Assembly: GCF_900115675.1 (NCBI RefSeq)
Contig: NZ_FOXI01000003.1
Coordinates: 234,767-258,766, forward strand
From: Halolamina pelagica
Lineage (GTDB): Archaea; Halobacteriota; Halobacteria; Halobacteriales; Haloferacaceae
Direction: 5' to 3'
Length of the DNA stretch: 24,000 bases
In this document: positions 1 through 21,848 of the stretch, piece by piece
Layout of the letters: each line of letters begins with the position of its first letter
Position numbering within the stretch: the first letter of the stretch is position 1
Notes under the pieces: model-generated
Told to the model about the DNA's origin: nothing
The model's input: the letters and a program-made list of their open reading frames with translations, nothing else
The model's database searches: none
Translations under genes and position numbers: made by a program

Positions 1-688
1 ATTCGAGTTCACTTTGCTCCATCTGAGAGAGGACTTCCTCTGTTGAGGCAATACTCGAAATTCCAATTGCTGAGGAGAACTGGACAATCTCGGTCTCCAG
101 AATTGAAAACACACAGCGAGGACTCTCATCAAGATATTTTTGCCGAAAAGCCTCTGGTGGCTGGCTGTTGACCTCGTTAATCAACCGGTCTAACGAAAAG
201 AAAACCGTTGGAGCGACATCGATCGTTGCACTCTCGGCGATACATGCCTCGATATTCGATTTTCTAAGATTGTATGAGGTACTGATCTCGAAGTACTGTT
301 GATTCTCGTACACATCGTTCAACACGCTAAATATCTCCTCTACGCCAGAGATTGTACCAAGAGTTAGCTCCTGAAGTGAGTCCGCGAGGTCTGGATCGCT
401 CGGATATAGTCCTCCAGGATCGTATTGCTCACCATCTACTTGTTCGGCAACAATAGTATCCTCAGAAGGATTGTACTGGATTTGATAGCCATCAGATTCC
501 CCGTCAATATGGACTGTAAGACGACCAGTTTCAATATACTCTGATAGGTGGATCACCGCCTCGACAAAATCCTCAATCTCCTCAAGAGATGGCTCCTCGA
601 TTTCAATCGAATATGATTGACTGTCCTCTCCCTCTGAATCATCTCCTAAATCGACTACCCTCGAAACAGCATTTGCTAACTCCTCCAT
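1..688 (-). CDS. Hypothetical acidic protein, N-terminal 229 codons only (gene runs off the left edge of the window)
   Basis: Absent from the supplied ORF track because no stop lies inside the window. Hand translation of the minus strand from the ATG at 688-686 stays open for 229 codons to position 1: MEELANAVSRVVDLGDDSEGEDSQSYSIEIEEPSLEEIEDFVEAVIHLSEYIETGRLTVHIDGESDGYQIQYNPSEDT... The start is 10 nt downstream of the TAA (698-700) of the preceding same-strand gene. Acidic composition matches the neighbouring genes. No family recognised by eye. Confidence 0.55.
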   Translation of the reverse strand, partial: MEELANAVSRVVDLGDDSEGEDSQSYSIEIEEPSLEEIEDFVEAVIHLSEYIETGRLTVHIDGESDGYQIQYNPSEDTIVAEQVDGEQYDPGGLYPSDPDLADSLQELTLGTISGVEEIFSVLNDVYENQQYFEISTSYNLRKSNIEACIAESATIDVAPTVFFSLDRLINEVNSQPPEAFRQKYLDESPRCVFSILETEIVQFSSAIGISSIASTEEVLSQMEQSELE

Positions 689-697
689 CTTTCTCAG

Positions 698-1741: not shown

Positions 1742-1765
1742 TAACAGTACCCCGTGTGCGCCAAC

Positions 1766-1772
1766 ATTTATT
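1766..1772 (-). promoter_or_regulatory. TATA-like box (AATAAAT on the gene strand) for the NA37-like gene
   Basis: AATAAAT lies 25-31 nt upstream of the ATG at 1741. This spacing fits a leaderless haloarchaeal transcript starting at or near the ATG. Confidence 0.4.
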
Positions 1773-1874
1773 CCTTATTACACAGGTGAGGTTACACTAC
1801 ACCCCCTATGCTCTATCAGATTTGGATAATATACGGTAATATTGGGAGTGCTGTAGCGTAGTAGGTCCACAACG

Positions 1875-1892
1875 GTTGATGGCATCTTCAGC
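1875..1892 (-). repeat. Motif copy E1: GCTGA-AG-ATGCCATCAAC (gene-strand reading)
   Basis: Read directly from the sequence. It lies 28 nt downstream of the PLD::SNF2 stop codon (1921-1923). Confidence 0.8.
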
Positions 1893-1920
1893 ACCATTCT
1901 AAGTCACATCCCTGGTCTGA

Positions 1921-4900
1921 CTACGTAGTATCGAACGTCACCTGTGACATCAGCCCGGGTCGGTCGTTCTGATCGTCTTGATCTTCCTCGGGAGCCACAA
2001 TCATCCAACAGACCAACTTCACCTCGTCTTCCTCAATCGGTGGGAGTGGATCAGGAGCCTCGAACGGCTGTAGCCCCAATTCCTCTACCTTGTCGACCAG
2101 CTCCCGTGACTTTTCGATAGGGCCGAGAGACTCGTCCTCGTAGATTTCTCGAAGCTCACGTTCGTACTTGCGACCCCACGGAGCCTCTACAGCCTCCACA
2201 GTCTCTTGAAGCTCGTCCTGGGTCATATCATCCGGCCAGTGGTCACGGAGATGTTGGCCCACCTCACGGAACAGTCGGCGGATGTCAGGCTGGACGTTCA
2301 ACGGGTCCGTTTGCTCTTGCCACTGACGATAGATGTCCTCCTGTGCCGTCTCCCACGCTTCGTAGATTTGGTCTCGCATTCCATCTGGGAGAGCCCGTTC
2401 AGTATCACGAGAGCATTCGATGCGCTTCAGACAGGTCAGAGTGTCCTGAACCAGTTCGTCGTCCCCATCCATCTCGTGTGGGACGAACCGCATGAAGACC
2501 TCGTCCCCGACCCGAGCACAGAAGAAATAGCCCGGGTCTTCACCGCGGAATCCAGACCCAGCGGCCCACGGAAGTGACGTGATCTGATCCTCACGGTCCT
2601 CCAGTCCCTCGCGGAGTTCCTGGCGATATTCCTCCCCGGAATACGCCGCCGCTTCAGCCCCGCCTTGTTCGTAGAAATCCGATTCCTCCCGCTGGATCGA
2701 GTCTATTTCTTCGACCTTCTCCGCGAAGTTCTGATTGAGGGTATCCATATCCGGTATAACGCCCCCACTCACGCCGATTGAGCGGGCCGCCTGGGTGAGT
2801 TTCTCCCGAACCCGGTGTTCGAGCTCAAGAAGATCGTCCAGTCGATCCTCGGGGAAGAACGAGAATGGATAGATTTCCGAGTGCGGGGAATTAACGCGGT
2901 CGATACGTCCGTTCCGCTGAACGACGCGCATCGGGTTCCACGGGAGGTCGTAGTTGATGACGTTTCGCGCCTCTTGGAGGTTGACCCCCTGACCCAGGAC
3001 GTCCGTCGCAATCAGAATATCAAACTCGTCCGTGGCATCCGGTGGGGCGTCACCTGAGTTCGGTGCAAATCCGTGGACAGCTTCCTCTCGTGTGACGCCG
3101 TACTTCGAGCCGTCGCCGGACACAGCGGCAATGCGGCCCTCGTAACACGACAAGTCTTCGTCCTCGCTGACGATGGACTCCAGGTACTCGTAAATCCAAT
3201 CGACGGTGTCCTCGTAGTAGGAGAACAATAGCACCTTGCGGTTCTGGCGGAAGGCCGCCTCAACATCCTCATCCGAAATCTGTCGCGCCTCAGCGTCCTC
3301 TCTCGCTGTCTCAACGATGTCCTCAAGCGTATCACGGAGCGCATAGAGTTTCTCGTCATCTTCTCGGCTGACCGCCTGGGCTCCGTCGCGCCATCGCTCC
3401 AGTATCTCGATGTCGTGCTCAAGATCAGCCCGAAGCTCGGCGGGATCAGCATCCGCCGCCGCCAGCGAGATATTTCCGTCGGTCGCGTCATCCAACAGCT
3501 CCTCCATCCCTTCATCGCTGTCCGTCTCAACCCACTCATCAATCGCATTCGTCTCCGGGAAGTAGCCCTCGTCCATAAGTTGGAGCGCGATGCGATTTTG
3601 CGAGATCATCCCGTCGAGGGTGTTCTTGAAAGCGTAGCTTGACGACTCGAACCGTTTCAGGAGCCCCGTCCGCAACAGCCCGACCAAGGAAAGTTCAGAT
3701 GCGTCCTCCTCGCCCTCTAAGTAGTAGGACGGTCGGTAACGGGCCAGCGTGAGCTCAGCTTCGTCCCTGTCCCCAGCCGCCAGCCCTTCCGCGACGTCGA
3801 GGAAATAGTCGTCACCAAACGTCTCTGTGAACGTGTAGTCGACACGCTTGGGCTTCGGATCCGGGAAATTAATCCGCACTTCGCCGCCGTCGCCATCAGG
3901 CATCGTCGCGTTCTCATAGTGGTTCTTGATGAACCGCCGAGTCCGGCGTACCGTCGTCTGGTCGAGAATGTCAAACAGCATATCTGGACTGAGATCCGAC
4001 GGGTCCTCCGCCTGGGCTTGCTTGAACTGGTCTCGAAGCGACCGGATACCCTCGTTGGCAAAGGTAGCGTCGTTCCGGATGAAATAATTCAGGAGGTAGT
4101 ACAGGTCCCACAGTGAGTTGTTGACCGGCGTGGCCGTGAGCATAACAACGTCCTTTGGCGGATCTCCCCGGAGGAGCGTCCGGAGTGCGTGGGATTGCTG
4201 GGTGCCAGGGTTGCGGAACGCATGAGCCTCGTCAATAACGACCAACTGATACTCGTCGACGGGAAGACTGAGATTGTTGGCGTCCCCACCGAGTTGGCTG
4301 TCGTTCCGGAGTTCAGCGTAGGATACCGTCTCAAATTGCACACCCCACTCGGCTGGCTTCTGTGTCCACATCCCGTCCCTGAGATACGCCGGTGCGACGA
4401 CGAGTGCACGCTGTCGGTTCTCCTGGACGTACTGTTCGAGGAGCTTGCCCCCGATATACGTCTTCCCGAGTCCGACCTCATCGGCAATGATGACGCCGTT
4501 GTGCTTGTCGAGGAACCGATTTGCTCTCCTGACGCTGTCCTGTTGGAAATTGGTGAGGTTGATCGCACCCCCGTCGTCCTCTCGTTCCTCCTCCAGTTCA
4601 TCACCGTACCGTTCGTAGAGCACCCGGAGGTAGATTAGGTGTGGATCGTAGGGCTCGAATCGTTCCTCGTAGAGACTGGCGAGGTCGAACGGTTCGCTTT
4701 CTTCCCAGAGGTCTTCGAACCAGTCGTTGATGCGTTCGGTTACGTGAGGGTCGTAAGTGCCGAGGTTCAGCTCCAGATTCGAGTTCAGTCCCGCGCCGGT
4801 GAAGTTCGATGACCCAGCAATCGCTCCCTGGCTGTCCGAGAACAAGTATGCCTTCCCGTGGACGAAGCTATCCTCGTGGCGGCGCACCTCAACGCGGTCG

Positions 4901-5292
4901 CTCCGGAGGAAATCCACGAGTTCCTGAAGTCCTTGGTCGACATCCCGCGAGAAACCAAGCAAGTCTCGGTCACGTTCGAGATTCTGATCCAGCGTCTGGA
5001 GTGCTTCCTCGATACGCTTGCGTTCATACGCTTCCCCTCGTGGTTCCTCAGGTTGTCGCCAGCGTTCCTTGCCTTCCTGATCGGGTTGAGCCCCGATGAG
5101 GAGATGGACCTGATCGACGTGTTCCAGCCCCTCAGCGACTGAAAAGTACCCTCTTGGGTTGAAGTAGCCGGTGACAATGTCGAGGTTGGGGTCGTTAGCC
5201 AGCCGATCATCCAAGTCCGAGAGATAGGCGTTGATTGCGGCGGCAAGCGTATTGCCGTCTCGGTTGTCGACGACTTGCGGCTGTTCAGTCAT
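1921..5292 (-). CDS. PLD-family (HKD) nuclease domain fused to an SNF2/SF2 helicase-ATPase
   Basis: There is a single HKD motif, HGKAYLFSD...GSSNFT (nt ~4800-4860). The SNF2 motifs are DEVGLGKT (4459-4482), VVIDEAHAFRN (DEAH at 4219-4233), LTATPVNN, and DVLGQGVNLQ...NYDLPWNPMRVVQRNGRIDR. The ORF-track start at 5325 is GTG. I prefer the ATG at 5292-5290 (MTEQPQVV...), which overlaps the upstream methyltransferase stop as ATGACTGA, giving 1123 aa. Confidence 0.9.
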   Translation of the reverse strand: MTEQPQVVDNRDGNTLAAAINAYLSDLDDRLANDPNLDIVTGYFNPRGYFSVAEGLEHVDQVHLLIGAQPDQEGKERWRQPEEPRGEAYERKRIEEALQTLDQNLERDRDLLGFSRDVDQGLQELVDFLRSDRVEVRRHEDSFVHGKAYLFSDSQGAIAGSSNFTGAGLNSNLELNLGTYDPHVTERINDWFEDLWEESEPFDLASLYEERFEPYDPHLIYLRVLYERYGDELEEEREDDGGAINLTNFQQDSVRRANRFLDKHNGVIIADEVGLGKTYIGGKLLEQYVQENRQRALVVAPAYLRDGMWTQKPAEWGVQFETVSYAELRNDSQLGGDANNLSLPVDEYQLVVIDEAHAFRNPGTQQSHALRTLLRGDPPKDVVMLTATPVNNSLWDLYYLLNYFIRNDATFANEGIRSLRDQFKQAQAEDPSDLSPDMLFDILDQTTVRRTRRFIKNHYENATMPDGDGGEVRINFPDPKPKRVDYTFTETFGDDYFLDVAEGLAAGDRDEAELTLARYRPSYYLEGEEDASELSLVGLLRTGLLKRFESSSYAFKNTLDGMISQNRIALQLMDEGYFPETNAIDEWVETDSDEGMEELLDDATDGNISLAAADADPAELRADLEHDIEILERWRDGAQAVSREDDEKLYALRDTLEDIVETAREDAEARQISDEDVEAAFRQNRKVLLFSYYEDTVDWIYEYLESIVSEDEDLSCYEGRIAAVSGDGSKYGVTREEAVHGFAPNSGDAPPDATDEFDILIATDVLGQGVNLQEARNVINYDLPWNPMRVVQRNGRIDRVNSPHSEIYPFSFFPEDRLDDLLELEHRVREKLTQAARSIGVSGGVIPDMDTLNQNFAEKVEEIDSIQREESDFYEQGGAEAAAYSGEEYRQELREGLEDREDQITSLPWAAGSGFRGEDPGYFFCARVGDEVFMRFVPHEMDGDDELVQDTLTCLKRIECSRDTERALPDGMRDQIYEAWETAQEDIYRQWQEQTDPLNVQPDIRRLFREVGQHLRDHWPDDMTQDELQETVEAVEAPWGRKYERELREIYEDESLGPIEKSRELVDKVEELGLQPFEAPDPLPPIEEDEVKLVCWMIVAPEEDQDDQNDRPGLMSQVTFDTT

Positions 5293-8200
5293 CGTTTCTG
5301 GTGCCAGCCGCTTGTTCTTCCTCACGGTCGGTGTGATCGAGGTCCAGTCTATCCGCCCAACTCGCGTAGTAATCGAGAACGCGTTCTAATCGTTCCTCAT
5401 AATCCCATCCGTTATGGAAGGTCTCAAAGATGACCTCAACGTGCTCGCGAGTCAGCCCATAGAGGTGTGCGACTACAGCATCCAGCTCGTAGATTTTCTC
5501 CTGTTTCGTTTCTTCGTCAAGTGGGCCGTATTCGACATCAACTGTATCCGCCCAGTCCTCGTAACGATCATCGACGGCGGCAAGTCGGCCGGAGAGTTCA
5601 GTAACACGTTGGCGGAGCTCATCATTGCGCCCTGGGCGAGGGACCGGGAGGGCATTTAGGATATGATATTTCAGGTGTGTCTCAACGAACCTTCGGACAT
5701 ACCAATCGAATGGAATTGAACTCATTATACCAAGTAGATACGCTTCATCTCTCTCATCCCCACTGGGCCAGATGAAATATGGTGCCATCTCCACTAAGAA
5801 TACCTCTGGCGGGAGGAGTGAGGGTATACATGTTCTTGTATCTGTACTTCGGGCTACATCTCGGAAGGTAAGTCGAGGTTCAAAACAGGAAAGCGTATTC
5901 CTGTCATTCACCCATTCTTCCGGCATATCAGAGAATGGAGAGCGGGATCCAGCGTATTGATATGAGTTTTCTCTTTTCTCCTGTACGTAATCGATCATAA
6001 CATCTGGATCCGCCCACCCGTACCTAACACCTGTATCCGGCTCCCAAATATTGAATGACCCTCCTTTGAAAATTGGCCAATAACTATCAGCGGGATCGTC
6101 AGTGAAATGCATCAGTTGGGTGCCATCGTCTTTTTTCTTATCTTGAGTTGAGTGGAGCTCGGTGTTTGGAACAACATTCCACTCACCATCGGAATCCAGA
6201 CGTGGATGCCGCGCCATTACTCCAAACACTTCTCCTGTTTCTGGGACAGCGGGTAATAGAGGGAAAGAAGAACTATCTGTCCAGTGTTTTGCCCGGGATT
6301 GGTCGAAGTAGTGAGGCTCCTCATTCACACCTTTCTCGAAGGCCTCTATGCTCGGAAATGGCCCTCTAAGCGGTAGCGGCGTATCATCTGAAGGCGTTTC
6401 CTTCTTGAAACTAGTAAGGGCGATTGTATATTGTGGATGGACTTCAGAGAATATCCAATTTTGATTATTAACTAAGAACGTGATATCTTTCACAACTGAC
6501 TCTTCGAGGATTTTCTTCCTGAATTGCTCTGTTGCGGGGCCAACAAACGCACTTCTCGGTAGAACTACGCCGACATGTCCCTTCTTGGAAACGAGATGCC
6601 AAAACCGCCAACAAAACGCCACATACATATCTGGATCGCCACCGCCGATGCCTGGATAAGGACCCTCAGTAAGCATCTTAGCACGTTTCTCCTCCTCTAA
6701 TTTCTCGCTTTTCAGCTCCTCTACGAGATCTGGGCGCTCACTTTCGAGTTCATCAATACGCTCCTCGCGTTTAGTTGAGGAAAGACCACGGAGTCCGGGG
6801 TAATGCCTTGCCCAAAACTCGTGCCTCTCCAGCTTTGCTTTTTCCCATGGCGGGTTTCCAACAACAACATCAAATCCTGGGTTTTCGGTGTCAAAAACTT
6901 CAGGAAATGCTGTGGGAAAATGGAGTGGACTCGTCGACTCCAGTACTTTTTGAGCTTGCTTATAAGCATCCGTTTTTCTAATCTGTATACTGGTGTCCGA
7001 AACCGGTTCAGTATCTATACTTTCATCAATTCGGGATGCGGCCAGTACATCGAATCGTGCCCTAACTTCCTCTAATTTCTCCTCGATCTCGGCCCGGGTT
7101 TCTCGGGCTTCTTGCACCTGTTCAGCACTGGCGTCAGCAAAGTTTCCGAGACGAGAAATGTCTTCTCGAATCTCGTTCATTACACTCTGACCTCCAGCGA
7201 ACATACCCAGTGAGGATTGTTCTACGTCAAGAATATCTGTCACTTCTCCCAGTGTGCCAATTCCCGACAGTGAATCACCAGTCACGAGATTGTAATCGAG
7301 GAAGGTCAACGGGAGACCGGGGACAAACGTGTGAACCCAAATTGAAAGACGAGCCAACTCTGTGGCAAGTGGATTTAGGTCCGCACCGTAAACACAGCGT
7401 CGAGCAACCTGACGGCGGAGAAGTTGCCCTCGCTCGATATTGGGGGTGTATTCCTCATTTTCAAATGCATCTTCCGCGGCATCTCTGAGATTGTCGAGTT
7501 CTTTTTCGACTGGCGTGAGTTGGTTTTCAGTAAGGTATGCTCTGAGTCTCGTTTCAATCCGATCCACCGCTCCAACCAGGAAATGCCCCGACCCCATTGC
7601 GATGTCCGAGACACGAATATCGAAGAAAGCCTCCGCGGCGGCGTTCTCACCCTCCTCCTCACGTAGCCGGTCGATGCGTTCAATGTGATCGTCAAGTGCG
7701 GGCTCAAGCGAATTATCCAAGAGATGCTCGACGAACCTCGTCTTTGTGTAGTAGGTGCCAGTAGCCTTCCGCTCACCGGACTGGCCGTGGAGGTATACTT
7801 CACCCTTCTCAACTACAACGTTCTCATCGTCTTCCCCGAGCGTTTGCTGACCACCACTATCGACCGGCTTGTAGTGTCCTTTCTCGTCAGTCGTCAACGG
7901 CTGTTCCGCAACAGAGAGCTCTGATTCGAGGAGACCCTCGTAGATGACACCGAACTCTCGGACGCCAATGTTCCGGAAATCGACCGGTCCTTGGTACCCA
8001 TCTTCAGTCTCGTCAATGAGTAATCGGAATAGCACTGGGCCAAACTCGGCGTTGTTCAATCGGGTGTCCGAAAGCCGCGCACCCGCTTCGGAGACATCCT
8101 CATCTTCGGAGAGAATCCGCCCCTCGTAGGCGGGGAGTCCCATTTCCTCGTGACCGTGGTGGATAGCACGCGAGAGCCGCATCACATCGTCCCAGTGGTC

Positions 8201-9412
8201 GTAGAATGAGTCGTCAAACTCTCCGCCCTCCTGAACGAATTCGTGGAGATCGTGGGCCTTCTGTTTCAGCGAGTGTTGGTCGTAGCGACCGTTCCGCCGG
8301 CGGGGAAGAAACTCCTCGTCTTCGGCGTAAGCGATGAACAAGAGACGGTAGAGGAGAAAGAGCGCCATCTCGTAAGTCTGGTCGAGTTCCTCTTTCGTCG
8401 GGTCGTTGATGTCGCGTGCCTCGGCGATAGCCTCGGCGAGGTCGGGAATAACGTCGTCGTAGATGCGATTCCGGAGACGCCCACCGAGGTCAGCGGCGTA
8501 CTCCTTCGAGTCCTCCATAATCTGATGAAGGGCACCGTCGTCGCGGAGGGCATTCGCCGAGAACAACAGCCAGAGGTACGCCGCCTTCTCGTCGGCCAGG
8601 AGGTTCGTGTTCACCTCGACGTACGTGTCAGTCCGACCGCGTGAGCCGAAGCCAGCCTCCGGGTTCGTCGTATAGAGACGAAGCGTGTCACCGCTACTCC
8701 CGATGACGTAGTCCAGATTTCGCTTATCGGCCTCATTGAGTGCGTACGCTACCGGCGACTTGTTGACGAACCGATCTTGTTTGCGGTCGAATGACTCGTC
8801 TTCCTGGAGGAACATAGCCACGGCCCGCTCGTGGCCGTCACTGGTATCCTTGAGGACGTAGCTCTGGTCGGTAAGCCGGTCTATCTCGTAATTCAGCCCC
8901 TTCACCAAGTCTCGCGGGTCGTCCGTGAGTGCCTGTTGAGCGCGTTCAGTAGCATCGTCCCAATCGTCGCGTTCGGGGACACCAACCCTGAGTTCGTGCG
9001 TCGATAAGAGGCCTTGGTTCCGTAGGCCCGCAAGTTCCTCGTCAAGCTGTGGGAGCGTGTTAGAAAGGAACGACTGAGCGACGTGTCGATCTGGCTTTTT
9101 CAGAGCGGCGTCACAGACGCGCTCAGCTTGGCCGCGGTCGACGTCACGAAACACGGGCGGGTCTTCGCCGCTTGGCCCACACAGGCCGACCTTGTCATCG
9201 TATAGCGCGACCACGAGAATCGGGTTGACCCGACCGCCTCGCCGGTCGGTGTAGGTTCGCTGGAGGAAATCCTTGTTCGGCCGTTCGCCGTGATCGACGA
9301 CGACAATCTCTAACGCACTGGATCCTTCGCCTTGATAGAACTCAAATTCGGCGTCCGTCCTATCGTAAGACCAAGGACGACCATCGCGAGATTGGAGGAA
9401 ACCTGAAGACAT
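5285..9412 (-). CDS. Large gamma-class N6-adenine DNA methyltransferase, Eco57I/PglX-like (Type IIG/ISP-like MTase-TRD protein)
   Basis: SAM-binding motif I is DIAMGSGHFLVG (nt 7577-7606). Catalytic motif IV is VVVGNPPW (NPPW at 6845-6856). About 520 aa follow motif IV, leaving room for a TRD. The helical block LFLLYRLLFIAYAEDEEFLP and the C-terminal LNALPVP...YELDAVVAHLYGLTREHVEVI are typical of this family. The ORF-track start at 9484 is GTG. I prefer the ATG at 9412 (MSSGFLQSRDG...), which has a TATA box about 27 nt upstream, giving 1375 aa. No nuclease motif is visible in the N-terminal ~600 aa. Confidence 0.88.
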   Translation of the reverse strand: MSSGFLQSRDGRPWSYDRTDAEFEFYQGEGSSALEIVVVDHGERPNKDFLQRTYTDRRGGRVNPILVVALYDDKVGLCGPSGEDPPVFRDVDRGQAERVCDAALKKPDRHVAQSFLSNTLPQLDEELAGLRNQGLLSTHELRVGVPERDDWDDATERAQQALTDDPRDLVKGLNYEIDRLTDQSYVLKDTSDGHERAVAMFLQEDESFDRKQDRFVNKSPVAYALNEADKRNLDYVIGSSGDTLRLYTTNPEAGFGSRGRTDTYVEVNTNLLADEKAAYLWLLFSANALRDDGALHQIMEDSKEYAADLGGRLRNRIYDDVIPDLAEAIAEARDINDPTKEELDQTYEMALFLLYRLLFIAYAEDEEFLPRRRNGRYDQHSLKQKAHDLHEFVQEGGEFDDSFYDHWDDVMRLSRAIHHGHEEMGLPAYEGRILSEDEDVSEAGARLSDTRLNNAEFGPVLFRLLIDETEDGYQGPVDFRNIGVREFGVIYEGLLESELSVAEQPLTTDEKGHYKPVDSGGQQTLGEDDENVVVEKGEVYLHGQSGERKATGTYYTKTRFVEHLLDNSLEPALDDHIERIDRLREEEGENAAAEAFFDIRVSDIAMGSGHFLVGAVDRIETRLRAYLTENQLTPVEKELDNLRDAAEDAFENEEYTPNIERGQLLRRQVARRCVYGADLNPLATELARLSIWVHTFVPGLPLTFLDYNLVTGDSLSGIGTLGEVTDILDVEQSSLGMFAGGQSVMNEIREDISRLGNFADASAEQVQEARETRAEIEEKLEEVRARFDVLAASRIDESIDTEPVSDTSIQIRKTDAYKQAQKVLESTSPLHFPTAFPEVFDTENPGFDVVVGNPPWEKAKLERHEFWARHYPGLRGLSSTKREERIDELESERPDLVEELKSEKLEEEKRAKMLTEGPYPGIGGGDPDMYVAFCWRFWHLVSKKGHVGVVLPRSAFVGPATEQFRKKILEESVVKDITFLVNNQNWIFSEVHPQYTIALTSFKKETPSDDTPLPLRGPFPSIEAFEKGVNEEPHYFDQSRAKHWTDSSSFPLLPAVPETGEVFGVMARHPRLDSDGEWNVVPNTELHSTQDKKKDDGTQLMHFTDDPADSYWPIFKGGSFNIWEPDTGVRYGWADPDVMIDYVQEKRENSYQYAGSRSPFSDMPEEWVNDRNTLSCFEPRLTFRDVARSTDTRTCIPSLLPPEVFLVEMAPYFIWPSGDERDEAYLLGIMSSIPFDWYVRRFVETHLKYHILNALPVPRPGRNDELRQRVTELSGRLAAVDDRYEDWADTVDVEYGPLDEETKQEKIYELDAVVAHLYGLTREHVEVIFETFHNGWDYEERLERVLDYYASWADRLDLDHTDREEEQAAGTRNDD

Positions 9413-9437
9413 GTTTACACCAGTTGAGTGGACGGCT

Positions 9438-9444
9438 GATATAG
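9438..9444 (-). promoter_or_regulatory. TATA box (CTATATC on the gene strand) for the methyltransferase/helicase transcription unit
   Basis: CTATATC is centred about 29 nt upstream of the ATG at 9412. This fits a leaderless mRNA and supports 9412 over the GTG at 9484 as the start. Confidence 0.45.
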
Positions 9445-9695
9445 TTTGGTGGTGAAACTCTAAGGCGGAGAGGCAATTGACCACATTTGTCGGGTGGGGA
9501 AAACCGATGAGAATCTTCCCTTGGTGACATCCTGATAGTCATCATTCATTCAATATATCGGTGATAGCCTATTCACCCTCTACTCTGGCGTACATACAGT
9601 CACCACTCTGTTGCCTGTACTTACGGTATCAGCTTACAGGTCCGAACAAGTAGCTATCGGAAAGCACTCTACAATTCCTTTCATTCGGTATACCT

Positions 9696-10295
9696 CTAGA
9701 TGACAGTATGAATTTGTGAAGTGATGTTTGCGAAAGCCTCAGAAGCGGCATCAAGATCAGTAACCCCTGTACAAAGTAACTTCCCACTCGCAAATACGAG
9801 AATAATATGATCGGAGCCACGGTACACCAACGCGGGGAACTGTTCCGGCTCGTATTCCGCGGTATTCATCCCCAACTCAAGAGTAAGAAGTTCCAGCGGT
9901 ATTGGTGAGCCGAAGTCGGTCGTAGCTACGATGTTGTTGATCTCGGTCGCTGGTTTGTAATCGAACTTCAGAATATCACGCATCACTCCATTTATTTGCT
10001 CAGTTTTATTGTTGAATTCTTCTATTGAGCCACATCCTGTAATAGAACAACGGCCAGATCGATAGAATGCGACATATGTATTATCAGGCGGAAACCGAGT
10101 TTGAAGCCAGTGGTTTTGCGATGGTTCGTACGTTACACTGGTGACATCCTCGCGTTCAGAGAACGTTTCCGCTAAGGCCGCAAGATCCAGCTCTTGCCGG
10201 TATGTGATCATACCTGAGACGTTGGCGATCTTCAGGTCAACCACTATTCTGTCATAACCATTGGTGGTAATAAGAGAAGCGGGTTTAGTAGTCAC
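9696..10295 (-). CDS. tbp: Divergent TATA-box-binding protein (TBP) paralog
   Basis: A two-repeat TBP architecture is recognisable. The second repeat is canonical: INNIVATTDFGSPIPLELLTLELGMNTAEYEPEQFPALVYRGSDHIILVFASGKLLCTGV. The first repeat is degenerate: KIANVSGMITYRQELDLAALAETF...TYEPSQNHWLQTRFPPDNTYVAFYRSGRCSITGC. The start codon is GTG (10295-10293), and the first in-frame ATG would truncate repeat 1. The gene is AT-rich (33% GC in the 9961-10020 sample). Confidence 0.85.
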   Translation of the reverse strand: MTTKPASLITTNGYDRIVVDLKIANVSGMITYRQELDLAALAETFSEREDVTSVTYEPSQNHWLQTRFPPDNTYVAFYRSGRCSITGCGSIEEFNNKTEQINGVMRDILKFDYKPATEINNIVATTDFGSPIPLELLTLELGMNTAEYEPEQFPALVYRGSDHIILVFASGKLLCTGVTDLDAASEAFANITSQIHTVI

Positions 10296-14338: not shown

Positions 14339-16195
14339 TTAGTTTTCGGGGTGGATTCGAAAATGGCCGTGGGGATTGAGGGTGTCGATACCTGTATCGA
14401 ACCACTCTTTCTTCCCGTTGAATCCGGTTATGCTGTCGACAGCATTCAGGTCCCGAAGGGTGTAGAGATGCTTCCGGACAGTACGTTCACCGTTACCGGT
14501 TTTCTCTTGAATTTCAGCCTTGGAGACTGATTCGTTGTTCTTGAGGACTCTCTTTGTTTCCTCGATCTTGTCACTCCACTTCTGTGGTCGCTTACTCACG
14601 ACTTTACGGGGAATCCAGTCGGGAATGCACGCTGTGTAGACGTAGATGTCCGCCCCAGCGATGTCGTCCTTCCGACCAGCACGGAAGATGGCCTGTGCGA
14701 CTTCGCTGTGAACCATATGGTGGTAGTACCGGTCGCCAATCTCGCCGTAGCTCTTGTCAACACCGTACTTGCCGTTGCTTTCAATGGCGTAGCCGTCCAA
14801 GGCCGCGAGCTGTTGGATGGCACGGTTGCCAGGGTGGAGCGAGCCGAGTACCGCAAGGAGCGTTTCATCCTCGAGTTCGCTGTGGGAACGCACTTTCCCG
14901 AGGTGAAGTTCTTTGTTGTCCACGTATTTGCCGTGGATGATGCTTTTCTTAGCCTGGAGACTTGTGATAGTCGGGACCATCCGGTCGTGGTGCTCACTAA
15001 TTTCGTGGAGGTAGCCGTTGAACTTCCATCGAGAGACATTTTTCGCCTTCGCTGAGAACGCCGTTGTTTCCTCGGTAAGTTGGGTGATCTTGTAGCCGAG
15101 GGTATCACGAACGAACTCAGCACGTTCTTCGTCGGTCATAAAGTCCTCGTCGTAGTCGAGCTCACGTCCGAGGCGACCCTCCCAGATTTCCGGGGTTGGT
15201 GTTCCGTCCATAGCGATGGCCGCCCACGCACTCGTGAGGGCTTCGGGAGGGTTCCGGATGGTGACCGATGGTTCGTCCCTGTCTTTGCCCTCGTCGTGGA
15301 GGAGTACCTTCTTTCCAATCTCCGTACGGCGAAGCCCTGTGTCCGTCACTTCATCGTTCTCGACGGGCTTACCGTTGAGCACAGCCAGCGTGAGGAGTGG
15401 AGAATCGGCACGACCGCCCTGATTCGAGTAGCCGATGTCCGGATCGACCAGGAGCTCACGATCCATAATGATCTCAATCCATTCCTCTCGCTGTTCATCG
15501 TCGGCACGGATCAGGTCATTCTTTGACCCAGCGTCGATGTCCGAGTGGTGCTCAAGGAACGTAGAGATAGCCGCCGTGTAGACGCTCTGGCTGACAGTGT
15601 ACTCGAAGGCCCCGCCAGCATCCTCGTCGAACAGCACAGCACGTTCTTCGACATAGCTCAAGATGTTGGCGTGGACTGGGTGACCGATTAGGAGCTCGTA
15701 GTCCTCAGCGTCGAAGTCGCACGCGGCCGAGTATTCACACTTGCCATCGTGCTGGCACGGAATCTTGTCGCCCATAAACTCGTGGATGATGCTCGGGGGA
15801 ACGAGCTGGCGTTGAAGTTCCGCCATCAGTTCGGACCACTTCAGGTCCATCCCGGAGACTTCCTTGCCGTCGTGCTCACCCTTGGCGGTAGGGCACCAAC
15901 GATTGAAGACGGGAAGCCGCTTGATATTTTCAGGTTCGAGACCGGCCTCAATGGCGTACTCCTCGATCTGTTCACGGGTGTCGATTTGCTTCGTGAACAC
16001 GGTGAGGGGATAGTCGACGTCGTCGTCAGCCGGGAGGTTGCCCGCACTCCACGTCTTGCCGAGCGTCATCAGAATAGGAAGGAGGTGATTTCCGCCTTGG
16101 TTGATGGCATCCTTGATGGTGTTGTAAGACTTGTTTCGCCACTCCTGAAGGGCGTCCACTTTGGCGGAGGTTGGGGTCTGTTCAATTCTCGACAT
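14339..16195 (-). CDS. P-loop NTPase / SF2-helicase-like protein with a four-Cys cluster and C-terminal winged-HTH; probable element replication/maintenance protein
   Basis: Walker A-like LMTLGKTW and Walker B-like AVLFDEDAGG are present. Four Cys lie between them (RWCPTAKGEH ... IPCQHDGKCEYSAACDF), an arrangement like the FeS/Zn insertion of XPD/DinG-type helicases. There is a motif VI-like VAQAIFRAGRKDD. The C-terminal HTH is SKAEIQEKTGNGERTVRKHLYTLRDLNAV. The ATG at 16195 lies 6 nt after the RHH gene stop. Confidence 0.75.
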   Translation of the reverse strand: MSRIEQTPTSAKVDALQEWRNKSYNTIKDAINQGGNHLLPILMTLGKTWSAGNLPADDDVDYPLTVFTKQIDTREQIEEYAIEAGLEPENIKRLPVFNRWCPTAKGEHDGKEVSGMDLKWSELMAELQRQLVPPSIIHEFMGDKIPCQHDGKCEYSAACDFDAEDYELLIGHPVHANILSYVEERAVLFDEDAGGAFEYTVSQSVYTAAISTFLEHHSDIDAGSKNDLIRADDEQREEWIEIIMDRELLVDPDIGYSNQGGRADSPLLTLAVLNGKPVENDEVTDTGLRRTEIGKKVLLHDEGKDRDEPSVTIRNPPEALTSAWAAIAMDGTPTPEIWEGRLGRELDYDEDFMTDEERAEFVRDTLGYKITQLTEETTAFSAKAKNVSRWKFNGYLHEISEHHDRMVPTITSLQAKKSIIHGKYVDNKELHLGKVRSHSELEDETLLAVLGSLHPGNRAIQQLAALDGYAIESNGKYGVDKSYGEIGDRYYHHMVHSEVAQAIFRAGRKDDIAGADIYVYTACIPDWIPRKVVSKRPQKWSDKIEETKRVLKNNESVSKAEIQEKTGNGERTVRKHLYTLRDLNAVDSITGFNGKKEWFDTGIDTLNPHGHFRIHPEN

Positions 16196-16952: not shown

Positions 16953-17807
16953 TCACTTGGAGTCGAGTGTCTCCTGTTCGAGGTTCGGCTCCTCCCACGG
17001 ATCATCGAAGTCGACTGTGCTGAGTGCGTGATCAAATTCCTCGTGGGTGAACTCCGCGCTGGTATCGTCGGCTTGCCCCACAAGTTCCATATTGATGCTC
17101 TTGTACCGCCGTTCGAGATCACTCATCGAATCAGTCCGTGACGAATGGATCAAAAAATGGCCGTAGCCGCGATTTTTTCCCGAGCCAATCGACGTGTGCA
17201 TATCGAAGGCAACATCGTGTTGACCATCCGGATTGAGTTCGCCAACGGGGAAATCGTATCGTGGCTCACGGCCTTCTTCAGCGGCGGTGACACGCTCCTC
17301 AGCAATTCGCTCGAAGGTGTTATTGAGATAGTCACATAGTCGGCTGGATTGTGCCTGGGCACATACTACGGCCGCTCTGAGGGCACAGACACGTCCCCGC
17401 TCGTTCTCAGCGGACCAACTGTCGACGACATCTACTTGTCCCGTTCCGAGTTGATAGAGAGATCGGACCTGTGAGGTCACGTCGCTCTCAATACTGGTGT
17501 CTTCGGTCGCTATCGTTAGAATCCGCTTCCAGAACATATTGTCGTATCCCGACCTAACGAGCTCCCAGGCGGCCCACGCCGAGGCTTCTTTGTCTGACCG
17601 CCTCACTGATTTTTGTAGCAACGAACTCACGTCAAAGATATTGTATCGGGCATCGGTCTGAAACCGTCCAGTGGGATCACCATCATCCCCTACATTCTTT
17701 GTTGCCTGTTCGCCCTCCTCGCTTTCCTCTAACTCTCCATCTTCGCCGAAGCGAAGTTGATCGCTGGACTTGTCAGTCACGGGTATTCCCAAGTAAAGAT
17801 AGGACAT
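16953..17807 (-). CDS. MgsA/WRNIP1 C-terminal-domain-like protein without an AAA+ module (tentative)
   Basis: SSLLQKSVRRSDKEASAWAAWELVRSGYDNMFWKRILTIATEDTS resembles the MgsA_C signature (hKSiRGSDpdAAlyW...G.D...i.RRl...A.EDig). No Walker motifs are present. The ORF-track start at 17882 is TTG. I prefer the ATG at 17807 (MSYLYLGIPV..., 284 aa). Confidence 0.55.
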   Translation of the reverse strand: MSYLYLGIPVTDKSSDQLRFGEDGELEESEEGEQATKNVGDDGDPTGRFQTDARYNIFDVSSLLQKSVRRSDKEASAWAAWELVRSGYDNMFWKRILTIATEDTSIESDVTSQVRSLYQLGTGQVDVVDSWSAENERGRVCALRAAVVCAQAQSSRLCDYLNNTFERIAEERVTAAEEGREPRYDFPVGELNPDGQHDVAFDMHTSIGSGKNRGYGHFLIHSSRTDSMSDLERRYKSINMELVGQADDTSAEFTHEEFDHALSTVDFDDPWEEPNLEQETLDSK

Positions 17808-17916
17808 ATAAGATAATAAACCTTTACTAATTGATACAATTGGCGAAAAATGTGATTTCGGTCGTCGGATGTCAAGGGACAACTACCTTCAATACGTGGT
17901 CTGATAGCTAAGTAAG

Positions 17917-19266
17917 ATGGCTCTCGCTGACAATCAACAGCTAACTCGCGTCTGGGATGCATTCGAGGAAAACGAATACCGGATGCAAGATAGCCAGGGT
18001 GATATTGTCGATATGGAGACGGCCGATGAGCGCCGACGTGATCGACTCCCACGTCTCCGGGAGCTTATCGACGAGTTCCTTAATGAGAATATGGCGCTGG
18101 GTGAGTTCAAGTCGGAGATTGATGGGCAAAACAAGCGATTCCCATACTGGGGATTCAAAGGTATGAACGGGATGATGTTCTTCAATATGCTCTATAGTTC
18201 CGCTGGCGAAGGTCGGCGGGACGAGCTTGCTGATCTTCTTCGTAACCTCATCCAACCACCAGAAGACGAAAGTGCGGCTAAAGAGAAAATTCGTACCTTG
18301 GAAGGGTTCGTCGAGCGGCTTCGCAATGAGGTGGATGACCTCAGAAAGGCACCTCGACCCGGGTCAATCCCGTACTTTCTCTCGTACTTCTGGCAAATTC
18401 ACGACCCTGACCGATACCCTATCTATTACACGTCGATGGTGAACGCGCTCTCTGATCTTGCACTCTGGGAGCCGAAAGACGACCTCGCTGATAGCTATGC
18501 TGAGTTCTGGGAATTAAACGAAGAGATGCGAGAATCGTTGGCTGACTACACAGGGAGAGACGTACATCTGTGGACCGTTGAGCATGTCTTCTGGTACTGG
18601 CAACAGCGCGACGAGTTCGACGAAGATGACGATGATGAGTCGGGGGAGACAACACACCAAACCCTCCCAGATAGCTACACACCGCCGATTGTGTCGATTC
18701 TCCCAGACCTTGCGGACAACACCGAGGAGATGGAGGAACTTGCCGAGGAGACAGGTAATGCCGTTGAAACACTATTCGAGAATCGTCTGGCGAAGTGCCT
18801 CCGAATGATCGGATTCGAGGTTGAGGAACTCGGCCAGGGGATGGGCCGCAACCCCGACGGTGTTGCCAAAGACCGGATGCACAACTACGCAATCATCTAC
18901 GATGCGAAAGTCCGTCGCAATGGGTACAGCATTAACACCGGAGACGAAAGACAATTTCAGGACTACATCAACAGAGAGGTTCCGACACTACGGAATCAGG
19001 GTTTCCGTAATATCTATTTCGCGGTCATCTCAGGTACGATCTCTGATGAAAGCCAAGAAGCGGTTCGGACTCTCAAGATTACGACGGACATTCAGGAAGT
19101 CAGACTTGTCGAAGCCGACGCACTTCTGGCTCTACTTGAGAATCGATTGCGTGATCCGATGTTTAGCCTTGGTCCGGGCGATGCCAGCGGGCCGGGGATT
19201 CAGGACTTTTTTGCTGAGAGTGGTATCCTCTCCGCCGCCGACATCCGCGAGGAACTTGGCATCTGA
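17917..19266 (+). CDS. Nuclease with C-terminal FokI-type (PD-D/ExK) cleavage domain and an uncharacterised N-terminal domain
   Basis: The C-terminal ~170 aa align by eye with the FokI cleavage domain. GRNPDGVA...YAIIYDAKV (PD at 18853-18858, D-A-K at 18901-18909) matches FokI RKPDGAI...GVIVDTKAY. This is followed by GYSINTGDERQFQDYI (FokI GYNLPIGQADEMQRYV) and YFAVISG (FokI FLFVSG). The N-terminal ~230 aa are helical and W/Y/F-rich (FPYWGFKGMNGMMFFNMLY, PYFLSYFWQIHDPDRYPIYY) and join the C-terminal domain through an acidic linker (DEFDEDDDDE). This is the only plus-strand gene in the island. Confidence 0.85.
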   Translation: MALADNQQLTRVWDAFEENEYRMQDSQGDIVDMETADERRRDRLPRLRELIDEFLNENMALGEFKSEIDGQNKRFPYWGFKGMNGMMFFNMLYSSAGEGRRDELADLLRNLIQPPEDESAAKEKIRTLEGFVERLRNEVDDLRKAPRPGSIPYFLSYFWQIHDPDRYPIYYTSMVNALSDLALWEPKDDLADSYAEFWELNEEMRESLADYTGRDVHLWTVEHVFWYWQQRDEFDEDDDDESGETTHQTLPDSYTPPIVSILPDLADNTEEMEELAEETGNAVETLFENRLAKCLRMIGFEVEELGQGMGRNPDGVAKDRMHNYAIIYDAKVRRNGYSINTGDERQFQDYINREVPTLRNQGFRNIYFAVISGTISDESQEAVRTLKITTDIQEVRLVEADALLALLENRLRDPMFSLGPGDASGPGIQDFFAESGILSAADIREELGI

Positions 19267-19386: not shown

Positions 19387-20286
19387 CTAACTGATTTCGA
19401 TCTGGTTAGTGTATCCGAACTGTGTTCGTGGCGGACACCCATGAGCTATGTAGTGAGCGCCGATTAGATCACATTCGACCTCCCCACGCTTGTGAGATGC
19501 GTCAAGATCGGTCCGTGATGAGTATGAAAAGAGTGCATCGCCCCCGTAGGTACTTTCGTGCTTGTAGAGACGCCTACTGATGTTTGAACTCTCACCAATA
19601 TACGCAAGCGGTGGTGCATCTCCCTCATACCATATCCGGTAGAGGCCAACATCAGACGGATCAGCATCGAGGCGGTCAGCCAACCGATACGGCTCCGACC
19701 AATCGCTTGCCATCCAGTTCGGATCGGTTACAGTCTCGAAATTGACCCACGGTTCGGGAGAACGTCCAAGCTCGGCATTTGGTTCATTCTCCCCGTTGTT
19801 TAATGATCCACCGCGCACGCCACCGCTTCGGTACGAGGATTGCTGATAGCCGGAGATGATTCGCCCGAAGTTAGCCGGCGGACTTTCTCCAGCTTCCAAG
19901 CGATACGACGCGATGAGCGCGGCTTCCAAACCCTTGCGTTGCTGATCGTCAGCCGCATATTCCGGCGTCGTGTAAGAGAGTTCGAACCCTGGGCCATCAT
20001 CATCACGAATCGCCCACAGACAGGGAGCGGCGGTATGCGGATCGCGGAACGGCATCTCCGAATCGTGGACACGCCTTGCCAGCGCCCGAATACGATGCTG
20101 TGTGTCTCCTGACTCGCCGATGTAACTGAGTCCTTCTCGGTTCTGGTGCCGTACTCGATAGAGTCCAGGGGCATCAGGGGCGGTAGCGAGAGTATCAGCG
20201 TCCAAGTCCATCCACGGAGACCACTCGACACCACCCCACTCCGGGCCGTCGTAGTCTCGCCAACAGACAGGGGGCCGTTGTACCAT
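19387..20286 (-). CDS. Tandem GIY-YIG nuclease-domain protein
   Basis: There are two internally homologous modules. The first is GLYRVRHQNREGLSYIGESGDTQHRIRAL...GLEAALIASYRLEAGESPPANFG. The second is GLYRIWYEGDAPPLAYIGESSNISRRLYKH...GEVECDLIGAHYIAHGCPPRTQFG. Each carries GxY, YIG, the downstream Arg and the conserved Glu. True ATG start at 20286. Confidence 0.8.
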   Translation of the reverse strand: MVQRPPVCWRDYDGPEWGGVEWSPWMDLDADTLATAPDAPGLYRVRHQNREGLSYIGESGDTQHRIRALARRVHDSEMPFRDPHTAAPCLWAIRDDDGPGFELSYTTPEYAADDQQRKGLEAALIASYRLEAGESPPANFGRIISGYQQSSYRSGGVRGGSLNNGENEPNAELGRSPEPWVNFETVTDPNWMASDWSEPYRLADRLDADPSDVGLYRIWYEGDAPPLAYIGESSNISRRLYKHESTYGGDALFSYSSRTDLDASHKRGEVECDLIGAHYIAHGCPPRTQFGYTNQIEIS

Positions 20287-20422: not shown

Positions 20423-21673
20423 TCACCAGATTTGTTCAGCGGCGTCGTTCCGCGTTTCCGCGTCTGAGTGAAGATACTTCATCGTCGTCGTGACGCTCTT
20501 GTGGCGAAGTTGCTCCTTCGCGTGGTGCGGACCGATGTGATTCGCCCAGTATGTCGCAACCCCGTGACGAATCGCGTACCACGTTATGTCTTTGTGATCT
20601 GGGATAGGAAGATCACCGTCGTCGACGAGCCGACTCAGTAGGTAGTTACATGACTTCGAACTGTACGTAGTCCCTTGCTTCGTGAGCCAGAGCTCGTCCC
20701 GACCACTGTACTTGTCGTACGTTGCTCGTTCTTCTAACCATCGTTCAAGTACTCTTGCTGTGCGTCCCTTGATCGAACAGTTCCAGTGAGCTTCGTTCTT
20801 TGTGGACTCGTCCTTGGGGATGTTGAGCTCGTTGTTCTCAAGGTTAACCCAGTCTGTGGTAGCTCGGCCTACTTCGATGGGACGGAGTCCAGTATCAAGC
20901 GTTACAGCGATGATCGACGGTTCTTTCCAAGAGTTGGCCTGTTTGAATTGCTCAGGGCCGACCTCTGACTTTGGTACACCGAGTCGCTGAGAGACGAACG
21001 TCTTCAGCCGGTCACGCTCCTCAGAGGACATATCGCTATGGTAGCTCTTGATCGAGTTGTATTCCAGCGCCGCCTGATAGAGTGGCTTGAACGCGGTTCG
21101 GCGAAGATAGTCGCGTTCATCCCCGGTTGCTTGACTCAGTTCCGGCTTCGGTTCCCAGTCGTAATCCGTTCCGTGGATGTGGTTCTGGTACTTGAATAGC
21201 CGCTGGACAGCTTTCCCGTAGTGAAGTACGCTTGAATCAGCCATCCCATCTGAGCGGTTGAGGAGGCGGATAAAGCGGTCAGCGTGGTCGGGAGTAAACT
21301 CTGTCGTGTAGGCGTCTTCGTCTTCCCAGAGCCACCTGAATACGATTTCGAGCTTGTAGTGCGTCGACTGAAGGGTACTCTGTGCGAGGCCCTGGCCTTT
21401 CTCTGGGTGTTTCCCGTACGAGCCGAGCCACGAAAGTACCTCCTGTTTGAAGTCGCGGTAGTCGTCGACCATGTTGAGCCCGTATGCTTCGAGGTCTTCG
21501 CGTGATCGTTCACTAATGAGCGGGAAATCGAGTTCCACTGGTTCCGGAGCCGATGGAAGGCTGTCCTGAGGGGTGCCATCACCGGCGGGGAGGTTGTCCA
21601 GCGGATCGGGCTGGTTGGTCACCCGCGCACACCTCGATTTGTCTGTGTGCCATGACACTTTATCGAATCGCAA
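20423..21673 (-). CDS. int: Tyrosine recombinase / phage-type integrase
   Basis: The C-terminal catalytic region reads LDTGLRPIEV (Arg), WYAIRHGVATYW (HxxR) and LRHKSVTTTMKYLH (His and nucleophilic Tyr). It lies next to a tRNA 3' end. The start is uncertain: 21673 is TTG, and an in-frame GTG occurs at 21622. Confidence 0.9.
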   Translation of the reverse strand: MRFDKVSWHTDKSRCARVTNQPDPLDNLPAGDGTPQDSLPSAPEPVELDFPLISERSREDLEAYGLNMVDDYRDFKQEVLSWLGSYGKHPEKGQGLAQSTLQSTHYKLEIVFRWLWEDEDAYTTEFTPDHADRFIRLLNRSDGMADSSVLHYGKAVQRLFKYQNHIHGTDYDWEPKPELSQATGDERDYLRRTAFKPLYQAALEYNSIKSYHSDMSSEERDRLKTFVSQRLGVPKSEVGPEQFKQANSWKEPSIIAVTLDTGLRPIEVGRATTDWVNLENNELNIPKDESTKNEAHWNCSIKGRTARVLERWLEERATYDKYSGRDELWLTKQGTTYSSKSCNYLLSRLVDDGDLPIPDHKDITWYAIRHGVATYWANHIGPHHAKEQLRHKSVTTTMKYLHSDAETRNDAAEQIW

Positions 21674-21776: not shown

Positions 21777-21848
21777 AGCCTAGGCCGGAATTTGAATCCG
21801 GGGTCTCGTCCTTACCAAGGACGCGCTTTACCGCTAAGCTACCCAGGC
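21777..21848 (-). tRNA. tRNA-Thr (anticodon GGU), 72 nt, no encoded CCA
   Basis: Hand-folded cloverleaf on the minus strand. The acceptor is GCCTGGG/CCTAGGC (one G-U pair). The D arm is GCTT-AGCGGTA-AAGC. The anticodon arm is CGTCC-TTGGTAA-GGACG, with GGT at positions 34-36. The variable loop is AGACC. The T arm is CCGGA-TTCAAAT-TCCGG. The discriminator is T. Confidence 0.9.

Follow-up and report, generated by a model that had tools for sequence, protein, structure and literature searches.

A candidate modification-dependent FokI-type endonuclease with an unrecognised N-terminal domain on a tRNA-Thr island of Halolamina pelagica

A gene joining an unrecognised domain to a FokI-type nuclease

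An integrative island in the haloarchaeon Halolamina pelagica (NCBI RefSeq assembly GCF_900115675.1, contig NZ_FOXI01000003.1) carries a gene whose product joins an unrecognised N-terminal domain (hereafter the N-domain) to a FokI-type cleavage domain. The gene lies in a stretch of 24,000 nucleotides (positions 234,767 to 258,766 of the forward strand), here called the window, and all positions are counted from its first letter. An earlier, model-generated reading of the same letters and their open reading frames (ORFs), here called the original prediction, had singled out this gene as a stand-alone FokI-type nuclease fused to an aromatic-rich domain of unknown kind. The gene and its parts, some of them delimited on AlphaFold2 (AF2) models, are as follows.

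17917 to 19266, plus strand: complete gene (putative N-terminal sensor domain, acidic linker and FokI-type cleavage domain), 449 amino acids plus stop codon, ATG start
17917 to 18633, plus strand: all-helical N-domain, residues 1-239, putative sensor of DNA or modified bases (AF2 model of this domain alone)
18148 to 18156, plus strand: near-invariant W78-G79-F80 motif (conserved in every fusion context; of 218 sequences, 208 have W, 214 have G and 211 have F)
18370 to 18429, plus strand: core conserved stretch P152-YFLSYFWQ...YPIYY-Y171, in which F154, S156, F158, W159, P168 and Y171 are near-invariant
18616 to 18669, plus strand: poly-acidic flexible linker, residues ~234-251 (AF2 confidence and homologue alignment)
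18664 to 18720, plus strand: conserved LPDSY-PPIVSILP-LA-N motif that opens the C-terminal module, residues 250-268 (67-sequence alignment)
18724 to 19263, plus strand: FokI-type cleavage domain, residues ~270-449 (Pfam PF09254, hhalign and Foldseek)
18853 to 18861, plus strand: P313-D314-G315, first catalytic acidic residue, equivalent to FokI P449-D450-G451 (hhalign)
18901 to 18909, plus strand: D329-A330-K331, catalytic D-x-K, equivalent to FokI D467-T-K469 (hhalign)

The ORF represents a real and intact gene. Among 5.8 billion proteins searched, 198 were homologous, with matches far beyond chance (best expectation value, E, 2e-294). Most of them are about 450 amino acids long and covered over their full length at 35-97% identity. 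They come from haloarchaea (Natrarchaeobius, Haloarchaeobius, Halorhabdus, Haladaptatus and Halococcus) and from bacteria, for example Chloroflexi. Their database names go no further than 'FokI cleavage domain-containing protein' or 'restriction endonuclease', and others are simply called 'hypothetical protein'. The novelty claimed for this nuclease in the original prediction is thus upheld for its sensor domain and its uncharacterised status, and not for the locus, whose family was already on record under such names. The peptides quoted in that prediction are all present in the translation of the ORF, and its motif coordinates are exact, with P313-D314 starting at 18853 and D329-A330-K331 ending at 18909. 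The full-length AF2 model of the product, built on a 67-sequence family alignment, has a mean predicted local distance difference test score (pLDDT) of 89.6.

The C-terminal cleavage domain

The C-terminal domain is a genuine FokI-type nuclease. When the AF2 model was compared with the PDB by Foldseek, FokI itself occupied the top three places (2fok_B, 2fok_A and 1fok_A; E 6e-8 to 3.5e-6, probability 1.00), and Nt.BspD6I and HindIII came next. Alignment of the 67-sequence family profile with residues 384-579 of FokI by hhalign (E 2.9e-5, probability 74%) placed the catalytic residues in register. The Pfam model FokI_cleav_dom (PF09254) matched residues 294-358 at E 3e-5 with 24.0 bits, against a curated cutoff of 25, and a precomputed match to the same model was present in 119 of the 120 homologues listed.

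The triad of D314, D329 and K331 (hereafter D-D-K) is complete in 143 of 152 relatives (D314 in 146, D329 in 151 and K331 in 146) and intact in 77 of 80 genome copies. The motif-for-motif match to FokI that the original prediction had reported is therefore borne out by the hhalign register, structure and conservation alike; that prediction had named non-conserved catalytic residues as a finding that would count against it. Because the FokI-type assignment holds and the triad is kept, the window enzyme is predicted to be active. The module begins with the LPDSY-PPIVSILP-LA-N motif, where P256 and P257 are invariant and S253 near-invariant across the 67 sequences, and where pLDDT climbs to 79-93. 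Further, R345 and D349 might form a pair on the helix equivalent to FokI alpha4 (D483/R487), in an alignment whose register could be off by one residue.

Two kinds of relative depart from this pattern. Nine proteins (P0091, P0096, P0099, P0100, P0101, P0107, P0129, P0172 and P0174) have lost at least one residue of the triad, with N, A or Y at D314 and E or R at K331. They are mostly longer (435-502 amino acids), mostly with extended linkers, and may be inactive partners or regulators. On a plasmid of Halalkalicoccus sp. FCH27 (NZ_CP144463.1; locus L016, 5079-5621), a 180-amino-acid ORF is 62% identical to the FokI-type domain only, without the N-domain; it is a remnant left by truncation or, alternatively, a free-standing cleavage domain. 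Its neighbours are a DUF262-HNH gene, an AAA gene and an Mrr-type restriction gene.

The N-terminal domain

Modelled alone, the N-domain folds with high confidence (pLDDT 94.6, predicted template modelling score 0.91) and is all-helical except for one short hairpin. It is aromatic-rich, as had been claimed: F, W and Y make up 13.4% of its residues, against 7.0% in the C-terminal domain. Across 218 sequences, the near-invariant residues are R40, W78-G79-F80, G85, N90, P115, F154, S156, F158, W159, P168, Y171, Y194 and E222. The poly-acidic linker that follows was also described correctly. Residues 238-251 form the only segment of the model with a pLDDT below 50, and the linker varies in both length and sequence between homologues.

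Comparisons with known families left the domain as unrecognised as the original prediction had found it. The single sequence matched nothing in Pfam, NCBIfam or PDB sequences, a 24-sequence profile likewise matched no PDB sequence, and the 24 members scanned singly gave no match at E up to 10. PADLOC returned no match to the N-domain, its only matches being to residues 282-392 of the nuclease domain. In Foldseek searches, nothing was significant in the PDB (best SsOgg, 3fhg, E 0.47, template modelling score 0.30-0.34) or in BFVD (best E 0.19). Sequence and Foldseek searches with the N-domain alone retrieved no known restriction-enzyme recognition domain; a known Type IIS recognition domain, which the original prediction had named, together with a cognate methyltransferase elsewhere in the island, as a finding that would count against it, was not among the matches.

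A module shared with Type IV effectors

The N-domain is not confined to FokI fusions. Searched alone against 1.84 billion representative proteins, its profile matched 695 clusters (at 50% identity) at E <1e-3 and 157 at E <1e-30, and many of the 695 are not FokI fusions. We scanned 30 long N-domain proteins without a FokI-type domain against Pfam. An McrB-type AAA_5 GTPase was present in 22, and GmrSD_N/DUF262 in four, one of which also carried HNH. One protein combined the N-domain with an EVE reader and AAA_5, and another with Mrr_N and AAA_5. In a separate set of ten proteins without a FokI-type domain (413-505 amino acids), two carried Mrr_cat.

McrB, GmrSD and Mrr are classic Type IV effectors, and in McrB and Mrr the N-terminus is the DNA-reading position (PMC11090510, PMC3874153). 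Two of the AAA_5 proteins match NF008457, the NCBIfam model of E. coli McrB (E ~1e-102, for example 1.8e-102), at model positions 161-456, which is the GTPase part only. The N-domain therefore stands in place of the McrB DNA-binding domain. Judged by position, it holds the place of the DNA-reading module in each of these fusion contexts.

The key residues of the N-domain are near-invariant across all four effector contexts (FokI, McrB, GmrSD and Mrr) among the 218 sequences. Such strict conservation, read from the alignment, points to one conserved ligand rather than to varied recognition sequences. Taken with the architectures, the N-domain is probably a new kind of modified-DNA sensor.

One haloarchaeal example also bears on annotation. 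On the Natronosalvus halobius plasmid NZ_CP099998.1 (locus L015), an N-domain-McrB-like gene is followed by a second gene with a 4-nucleotide overlap. The RefSeq 'AAA family ATPase' coding sequence in the region 5881-7746 starts at locus position 6250, while homology to the N-domain begins at 6001 and a longer ORF at 5881. As annotated, the coding sequence probably begins too far downstream to include the sensor domain.

Distribution and genomic neighbourhood

Relatives of the window protein are rare and widely scattered. They occur in 217 of 185,579 species genomes (0.12%; one genome scanned per species), spread over Halobacteria, Chloroflexota, Planctomycetota, Verrucomicrobiota, Desulfobacterota, Proteobacteria, Bacteroidota and others. 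This patchy but broad spread, together with residence on integrative islands and the presence of nearby defence genes, is typical of defence genes. A tblastn search of phage genomes gave no homologue.

To survey the neighbourhood, we used the annotated contexts of ten archaeal and bacterial homologues and clustered the flanking ORFs of 80 genome loci. The ten annotated contexts contained no conserved neighbour and no adjacent methyltransferase, and no methyltransferase adjoins the window gene. Some copies sit amid housekeeping genes, and several chromosomal ones have no methyltransferase within 6-10 kb. Clustering across the 80 loci likewise revealed no universal partner gene. The top non-self ORF clusters were rejected as partners, being alternative-frame ORFs inside the FokI-like gene itself. 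The original prediction had described the gene as lacking a methyltransferase partner. This stands in that no adjacent or conserved methyltransferase exists, but the island does carry a Type IIG restriction-methyltransferase fusion at 5285-9484. The absence of a methyltransferase partner is an accepted signature of modification-dependent enzymes (PMC11037411).

The sole true recurring neighbours are Type I restriction-modification (R-M) subunits, found at 16 of the 80 loci. In these, the gene is co-oriented and tightly packed within the Type I operon, and all 16 copies keep the D-D-K triad. HsdM adjoins the gene at 12 of the 80 loci, as part of complete Type I operons. At one locus (L039), the order is HsdM-HsdS-gene ... 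HsdR, and the gene overlaps hsdS by 4 nucleotides. The other 64 loci, and all haloarchaeal copies examined, have no R-M operon neighbour. The embedded copies, and one operon in full, are listed here.

Type I-embedded loci (gene at ~5001-6350 in most): L024, L029, L037, L039, L040, L053, L059, L062, L067, L072, L081, L086, L089, L092, L094 and L095
Gene order at L059, with 12-nucleotide gaps: HsdR 295-3093, HsdS 3090-4877, gene 4890-6317, HsdM 6330-7796

A probable modification-dependent endonuclease

We consider it reasonably likely that the window gene, as part of the defence cargo of an island integrated at tRNA-Thr, encodes a modification-dependent (Type IV-like) restriction endonuclease consisting of one polypeptide. 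We favour this reading because the N-domain is found at the N-terminus of McrB, GmrSD and Mrr effectors as well. The nuclease stands alone, without a protecting methyltransferase, both in the ten annotated contexts and in the 80-locus clustering. Its putative reader is modular and common to other Type IV effectors, whether McrB-type AAA_5, GmrSD_N with or without HNH, Mrr_cat, or EVE plus AAA_5. The proposal in the original prediction, of a sensor fused to a FokI nuclease and possibly reading modified or foreign DNA, gains support from these architectures, from which we infer the dependence on modification.

Under this reading, the N-domain (residues 1-239) would bind invading DNA through a conserved chemical feature, most likely a modified or hypermodified base. 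That base would sit in a pocket lined by the near-invariant aromatic residues W78, F80, F154, F158, W159, Y171 and Y194. The flexible acidic linker would let the FokI-type domain, with D314, D329 and K331, reach nearby DNA. Each domain is predicted to hold one active site, as in FokI, such that a double-strand break close to the recognised site would require the cleavage domains of two molecules to come together. Host DNA would be spared through absence of the mark, and hence no cognate methyltransferase would be needed.

Several observations weigh against this interpretation. The N-domain is not basic: its median isoelectric point is 5.4 across the 218 sequences, which is unusual for a DNA-binding module. 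Searches of PDB and BFVD structures, Pfam and PDB sequences gave no significant match between it and any known DNA or modified-base reader. The PF09254 score of the window protein is 1 bit below the curated cutoff. Finally, a guard or partner role would also fit the Type I R-M operons in which about 20% of bacterial copies are embedded, with hsdS on one side and hsdM or hsdR on the other.

That role forms the basis of one alternative, in which the protein is a guard-type or abortive-infection nuclease. Here the N-domain would sense a cue other than DNA, such as a phage anti-restriction protein or the state of a partner R-M complex, and would then free the nuclease against any DNA. PrrC, which sits inside the EcoprrI Type I operon, is the model for such a system. 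The compact, co-oriented placement of the 16 embedded copies speaks for it, as does the lack of resemblance between the N-domain and any known nucleic-acid reader in the PDB or BFVD; the acidic to neutral character of the domain points the same way and adds a little. Most copies, however, have no operonic R-M neighbour, and in McrB, Mrr and GmrSD proteins, all of which target DNA directly, the N-domain takes the place of the DNA-reading module. Moreover, Type IV systems embedded beside Type I or BREX systems are a known arrangement for complementary cover, as with BREX and BrxU (PMC8565348). By analogy, the Type I-embedded copies would fit such a division, in which unmodified DNA is left to Type I and modified DNA to Type IV. 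We therefore regard a guard function as unlikely, while granting it some weight.

A conventional Type IIS-like enzyme is less plausible still. The N-domain would then read an unmodified sequence and the protecting methyltransferase would lie elsewhere, such as in the Type IIG gene of the window or, in some bacteria, in the flanking HsdM. A FokI-type cleavage domain is indeed the hallmark of Type IIS enzymes, and the island does encode an Eco57I-type methyltransferase domain, just as HsdM adjoins a minority of bacterial copies. Nevertheless, the Type IIG enzyme is self-contained, and related islands that have kept the FokI-like gene lack it. The reading is disfavoured because no methyltransferase is conserved beside the gene, including at chromosomal copies amid housekeeping genes, and because the N-domain is invariant rather than diversified. 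Its candidate contact residues are near-invariant from archaea to Planctomycetes, unlike recognition domains, which diversify with specificity. Foldseek with the N-domain alone also fails to retrieve the recognition domain of FokI.

The last alternative arises from a faint resemblance to DNA glycosylases. About one third of the weak Foldseek matches to the N-domain are HhH-GPD glycosylases, with SsOgg first, then MagIII and MutY. None of the 24 N-domains matched PF00730, PF21790 or PF22175 at E up to 10, and hhalign against E. coli Nth gave nothing. For comparison with Ogg2, the MjOgg sequence was verified against 3FHF, and profiles of 3 and 121 sequences were used. The 3-sequence alignment gave E 0.42; 218 N-domains against the 121 sequences gave E 0.055 (probability 1%, 47 columns), and neither is significant. 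In the latter, non-significant register, which is the expected one, the P152-Y171 stretch and no other falls on the helix-hairpin-helix and catalytic-Asp region of Ogg2, with Y171 opposite MjOgg D147 and, by eye, Y153 opposite K129. Neither D at 171 nor K at 153 occurs anywhere in the family, which is meaningful only if the Ogg homology is real. A damage-directed or repair-type endonuclease, in which a degenerate Ogg/EndoIII-like lesion reader directs nicking near damage with no role in defence, or a decaying remnant, might be read into these matches, into the placement of the YPIYY loop on the Ogg2 catalytic-Asp loop and into the one subclade without catalytic residues, but is highly improbable given that no similarity reaches significance, that the gene is sporadic and island-borne, unlike repair genes, and that the window copy is intact with all its catalytic residues.

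The integrative island and its cargo

The gene belongs to a low-GC island whose right end is marked by an integrase and a tRNA-Thr gene. GC content is 0.46-0.59 on the island and 0.69 in the flanking chromosome, with a jump from ~0.55 to 0.69 past 21.7 kb. No att-type direct repeat of the tRNA occurs within the window, and therefore the left end of the island lies outside it. Other genes of the window include the following.

698 to 1741, minus strand: homologue of the 37-kD nucleoid-associated protein (NA37), at the left edge of the low-GC region (E 1.5e-8)
1921 to 5325, minus strand: PLD(HKD) and SNF2 helicase, 1134 amino acids, DrmD-like (PADLOC 'HKD+Snf2', E 5.6e-59)
5285 to 9484, minus strand: Eco57I-type Type IIG restriction endonuclease-methyltransferase fusion, 1399 amino acids, also resembling DrmMI (PADLOC, E 1.6e-258)
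9696 to 10295, minus strand: TATA-binding protein (TBP) gene (E 4e-32)
14339 to 16195, minus strand: 618-amino-acid protein without family assignment (only weak C-terminal matches, winged helix-turn-helix-like)
16953 to 17882, minus strand: divergent neighbour of the FokI-like gene, 35% identical to 7426-8280 of a Natrarchaeobius island (L003)
19387 to 20286, minus strand: convergent neighbour, 299 amino acids, with two GIY-YIG-like repeats, GLYRV...YIGES and GLYRI...YIGES (Pfam GIY-YIG, E 8e-6)
20423 to 21673, minus strand: tyrosine integrase (Phage_integrase, E 2e-13)
21777 to 21848, minus strand: tRNA-Thr (GGU) gene, marking the right end of the island together with the integrase

In related islands of Natrarchaeobius (L003) and Natronoarchaeum sp. 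FCH23 (L017), the FokI-like gene and an integrase are kept and the surrounding cargo differs. The latter also shares the integrase/tRNA-Thr junction, which is 94% identical (L017, 8048-9529). The 618-amino-acid protein is 57% identical to a protein of the same length in the Natrarchaeobius island (3829-5685), and its gene probably belongs to the backbone of integrative elements of this class.

The island carries further defence genes. The Type IIG and helicase genes, arranged in tandem with a 41-nucleotide overlap, are a DISARM-like or Type IIG-helicase defence pair, and the Type IIG fusion lies 8.4 kb from the FokI-like gene. TBP is encoded on the island, and in a related haloarchaeal locus (L001, 11579-12523) the FokI-like gene is directly followed by a TFIIB gene; such mobile elements therefore carry basal transcription factors. 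The NA37 homologue is of bacterial type, which is unusual for an archaeon.

The arrangement immediately around the gene was largely as first described. It is the only plus-strand gene of the island, in that it is the sole long plus-strand ORF there that does not overlap a minus-strand ORF. Its convergent neighbour does hold tandem GIY-YIG repeats. This neighbour also has a weak PADLOC match to PDC-S14, and is replaced by other DNA in the otherwise syntenic Natronoarchaeum locus. The gene on the other side had been called MgsA-C-like. It is indeed divergent, but the label falls away, since no MgsA_C or other credible Pfam match was found at E up to 0.1.

Significance

Modification-dependent nucleases are a major defence against viruses with modified genomes, and have been a source of epigenetic mapping tools such as MspJI, AbaSI and DpnI. 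The concept of such enzymes is established; the sensor family described here, and its pairing with a FokI-type cutter, are as yet uncharacterised. We found no paper in the searchable library describing the N-domain or a FokI-type Type IV enzyme.

We speculate, tentatively and with more doubt than confidence, that the N-domain is an undescribed fold or family of modified-base readers, present in hundreds of Type IV-like enzymes and reading a class of hypermodification that has no known dedicated reader. If this were true, it would represent a new branch of antiviral immunity in archaea and bacteria. A reader of this kind joined to a FokI-type domain would cleave at a fixed distance from the mark, thereby offering a ready-made enzyme for mapping the modification. 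Identifying the ligand of the N-domain would allow 'hypothetical' proteins of the McrB, GmrSD, Mrr and FokI types to be annotated by the hundred. Among these, the FokI-type version would be the simplest to test, being one polypeptide with no nucleoside triphosphate requirement, and the most useful as a reagent. Haloarchaea would gain a predicted single-gene Type IV enzyme of a hitherto uncharacterised kind, on an integrative island beside other defence cargo.

Comparison with known systems

The cleavage domain has the same fold and P-D...D-x-K residues as those of FokI (PDB 1FOK/2FOK) and Nt.BspD6I. The window protein also shares with FokI its order of parts, comprising an N-terminal recognition module, a linker and a non-specific cleavage domain, and is expected to share its need for dimerisation. 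It differs in having no cognate methyltransferase, in its PF09254 score, and in its N-domain, to which the D1-D3 recognition domain of FokI is unrelated.

The closest characterised functional analogue is the MspJI family. MspJI has a FokI-like organisation and cuts at a fixed distance from a modified base (PMC3479186). Like the window protein, enzymes of this family are stand-alone and combine an N-terminal reader with a C-terminal PD-(D/E)xK-type nuclease. However, their reader has an SRA-like beta-fold, in contrast to the all-helical model of the N-domain with its single hairpin, and the nuclease of the window protein is specifically FokI-type.

McrBC, GmrSD and Mrr are related through the sensor rather than the cutter. 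Homologues of the N-domain stand at the N-terminus of McrB-type GTPases and of GmrSD_N/DUF262 and Mrr_cat proteins. The window protein, in contrast, has no NTPase and bears a FokI-type nuclease on the same polypeptide.

END nucleases offer the nearest parallel in logic. These join an inactive EndoIII/Ogg-like sensor to PLD, to a NucS-like PD-DExK domain or to McrB, and target hypermodified phage DNA (2025 preprint, PMC12191111). Both they and the family described here combine a helical, non-catalytic sensor (putatively so in the N-domain) with interchangeable effectors, including McrB-type GTPases, and neither has a methyltransferase. Further, the best weak structural match of the N-domain, SsOgg 3FHG, is also the HHpred match of the END-Mag sensor (PMC12191111). 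Membership of the END group was nevertheless rejected, as homology of the sensor to EndoIII/Ogg was not significant by hhalign, Foldseek or Pfam, and a FokI-type effector is not among the reported END architectures. Kinship with END nucleases is thus a lead only, and the window protein may best be described, by analogy, as END-like in its logic.

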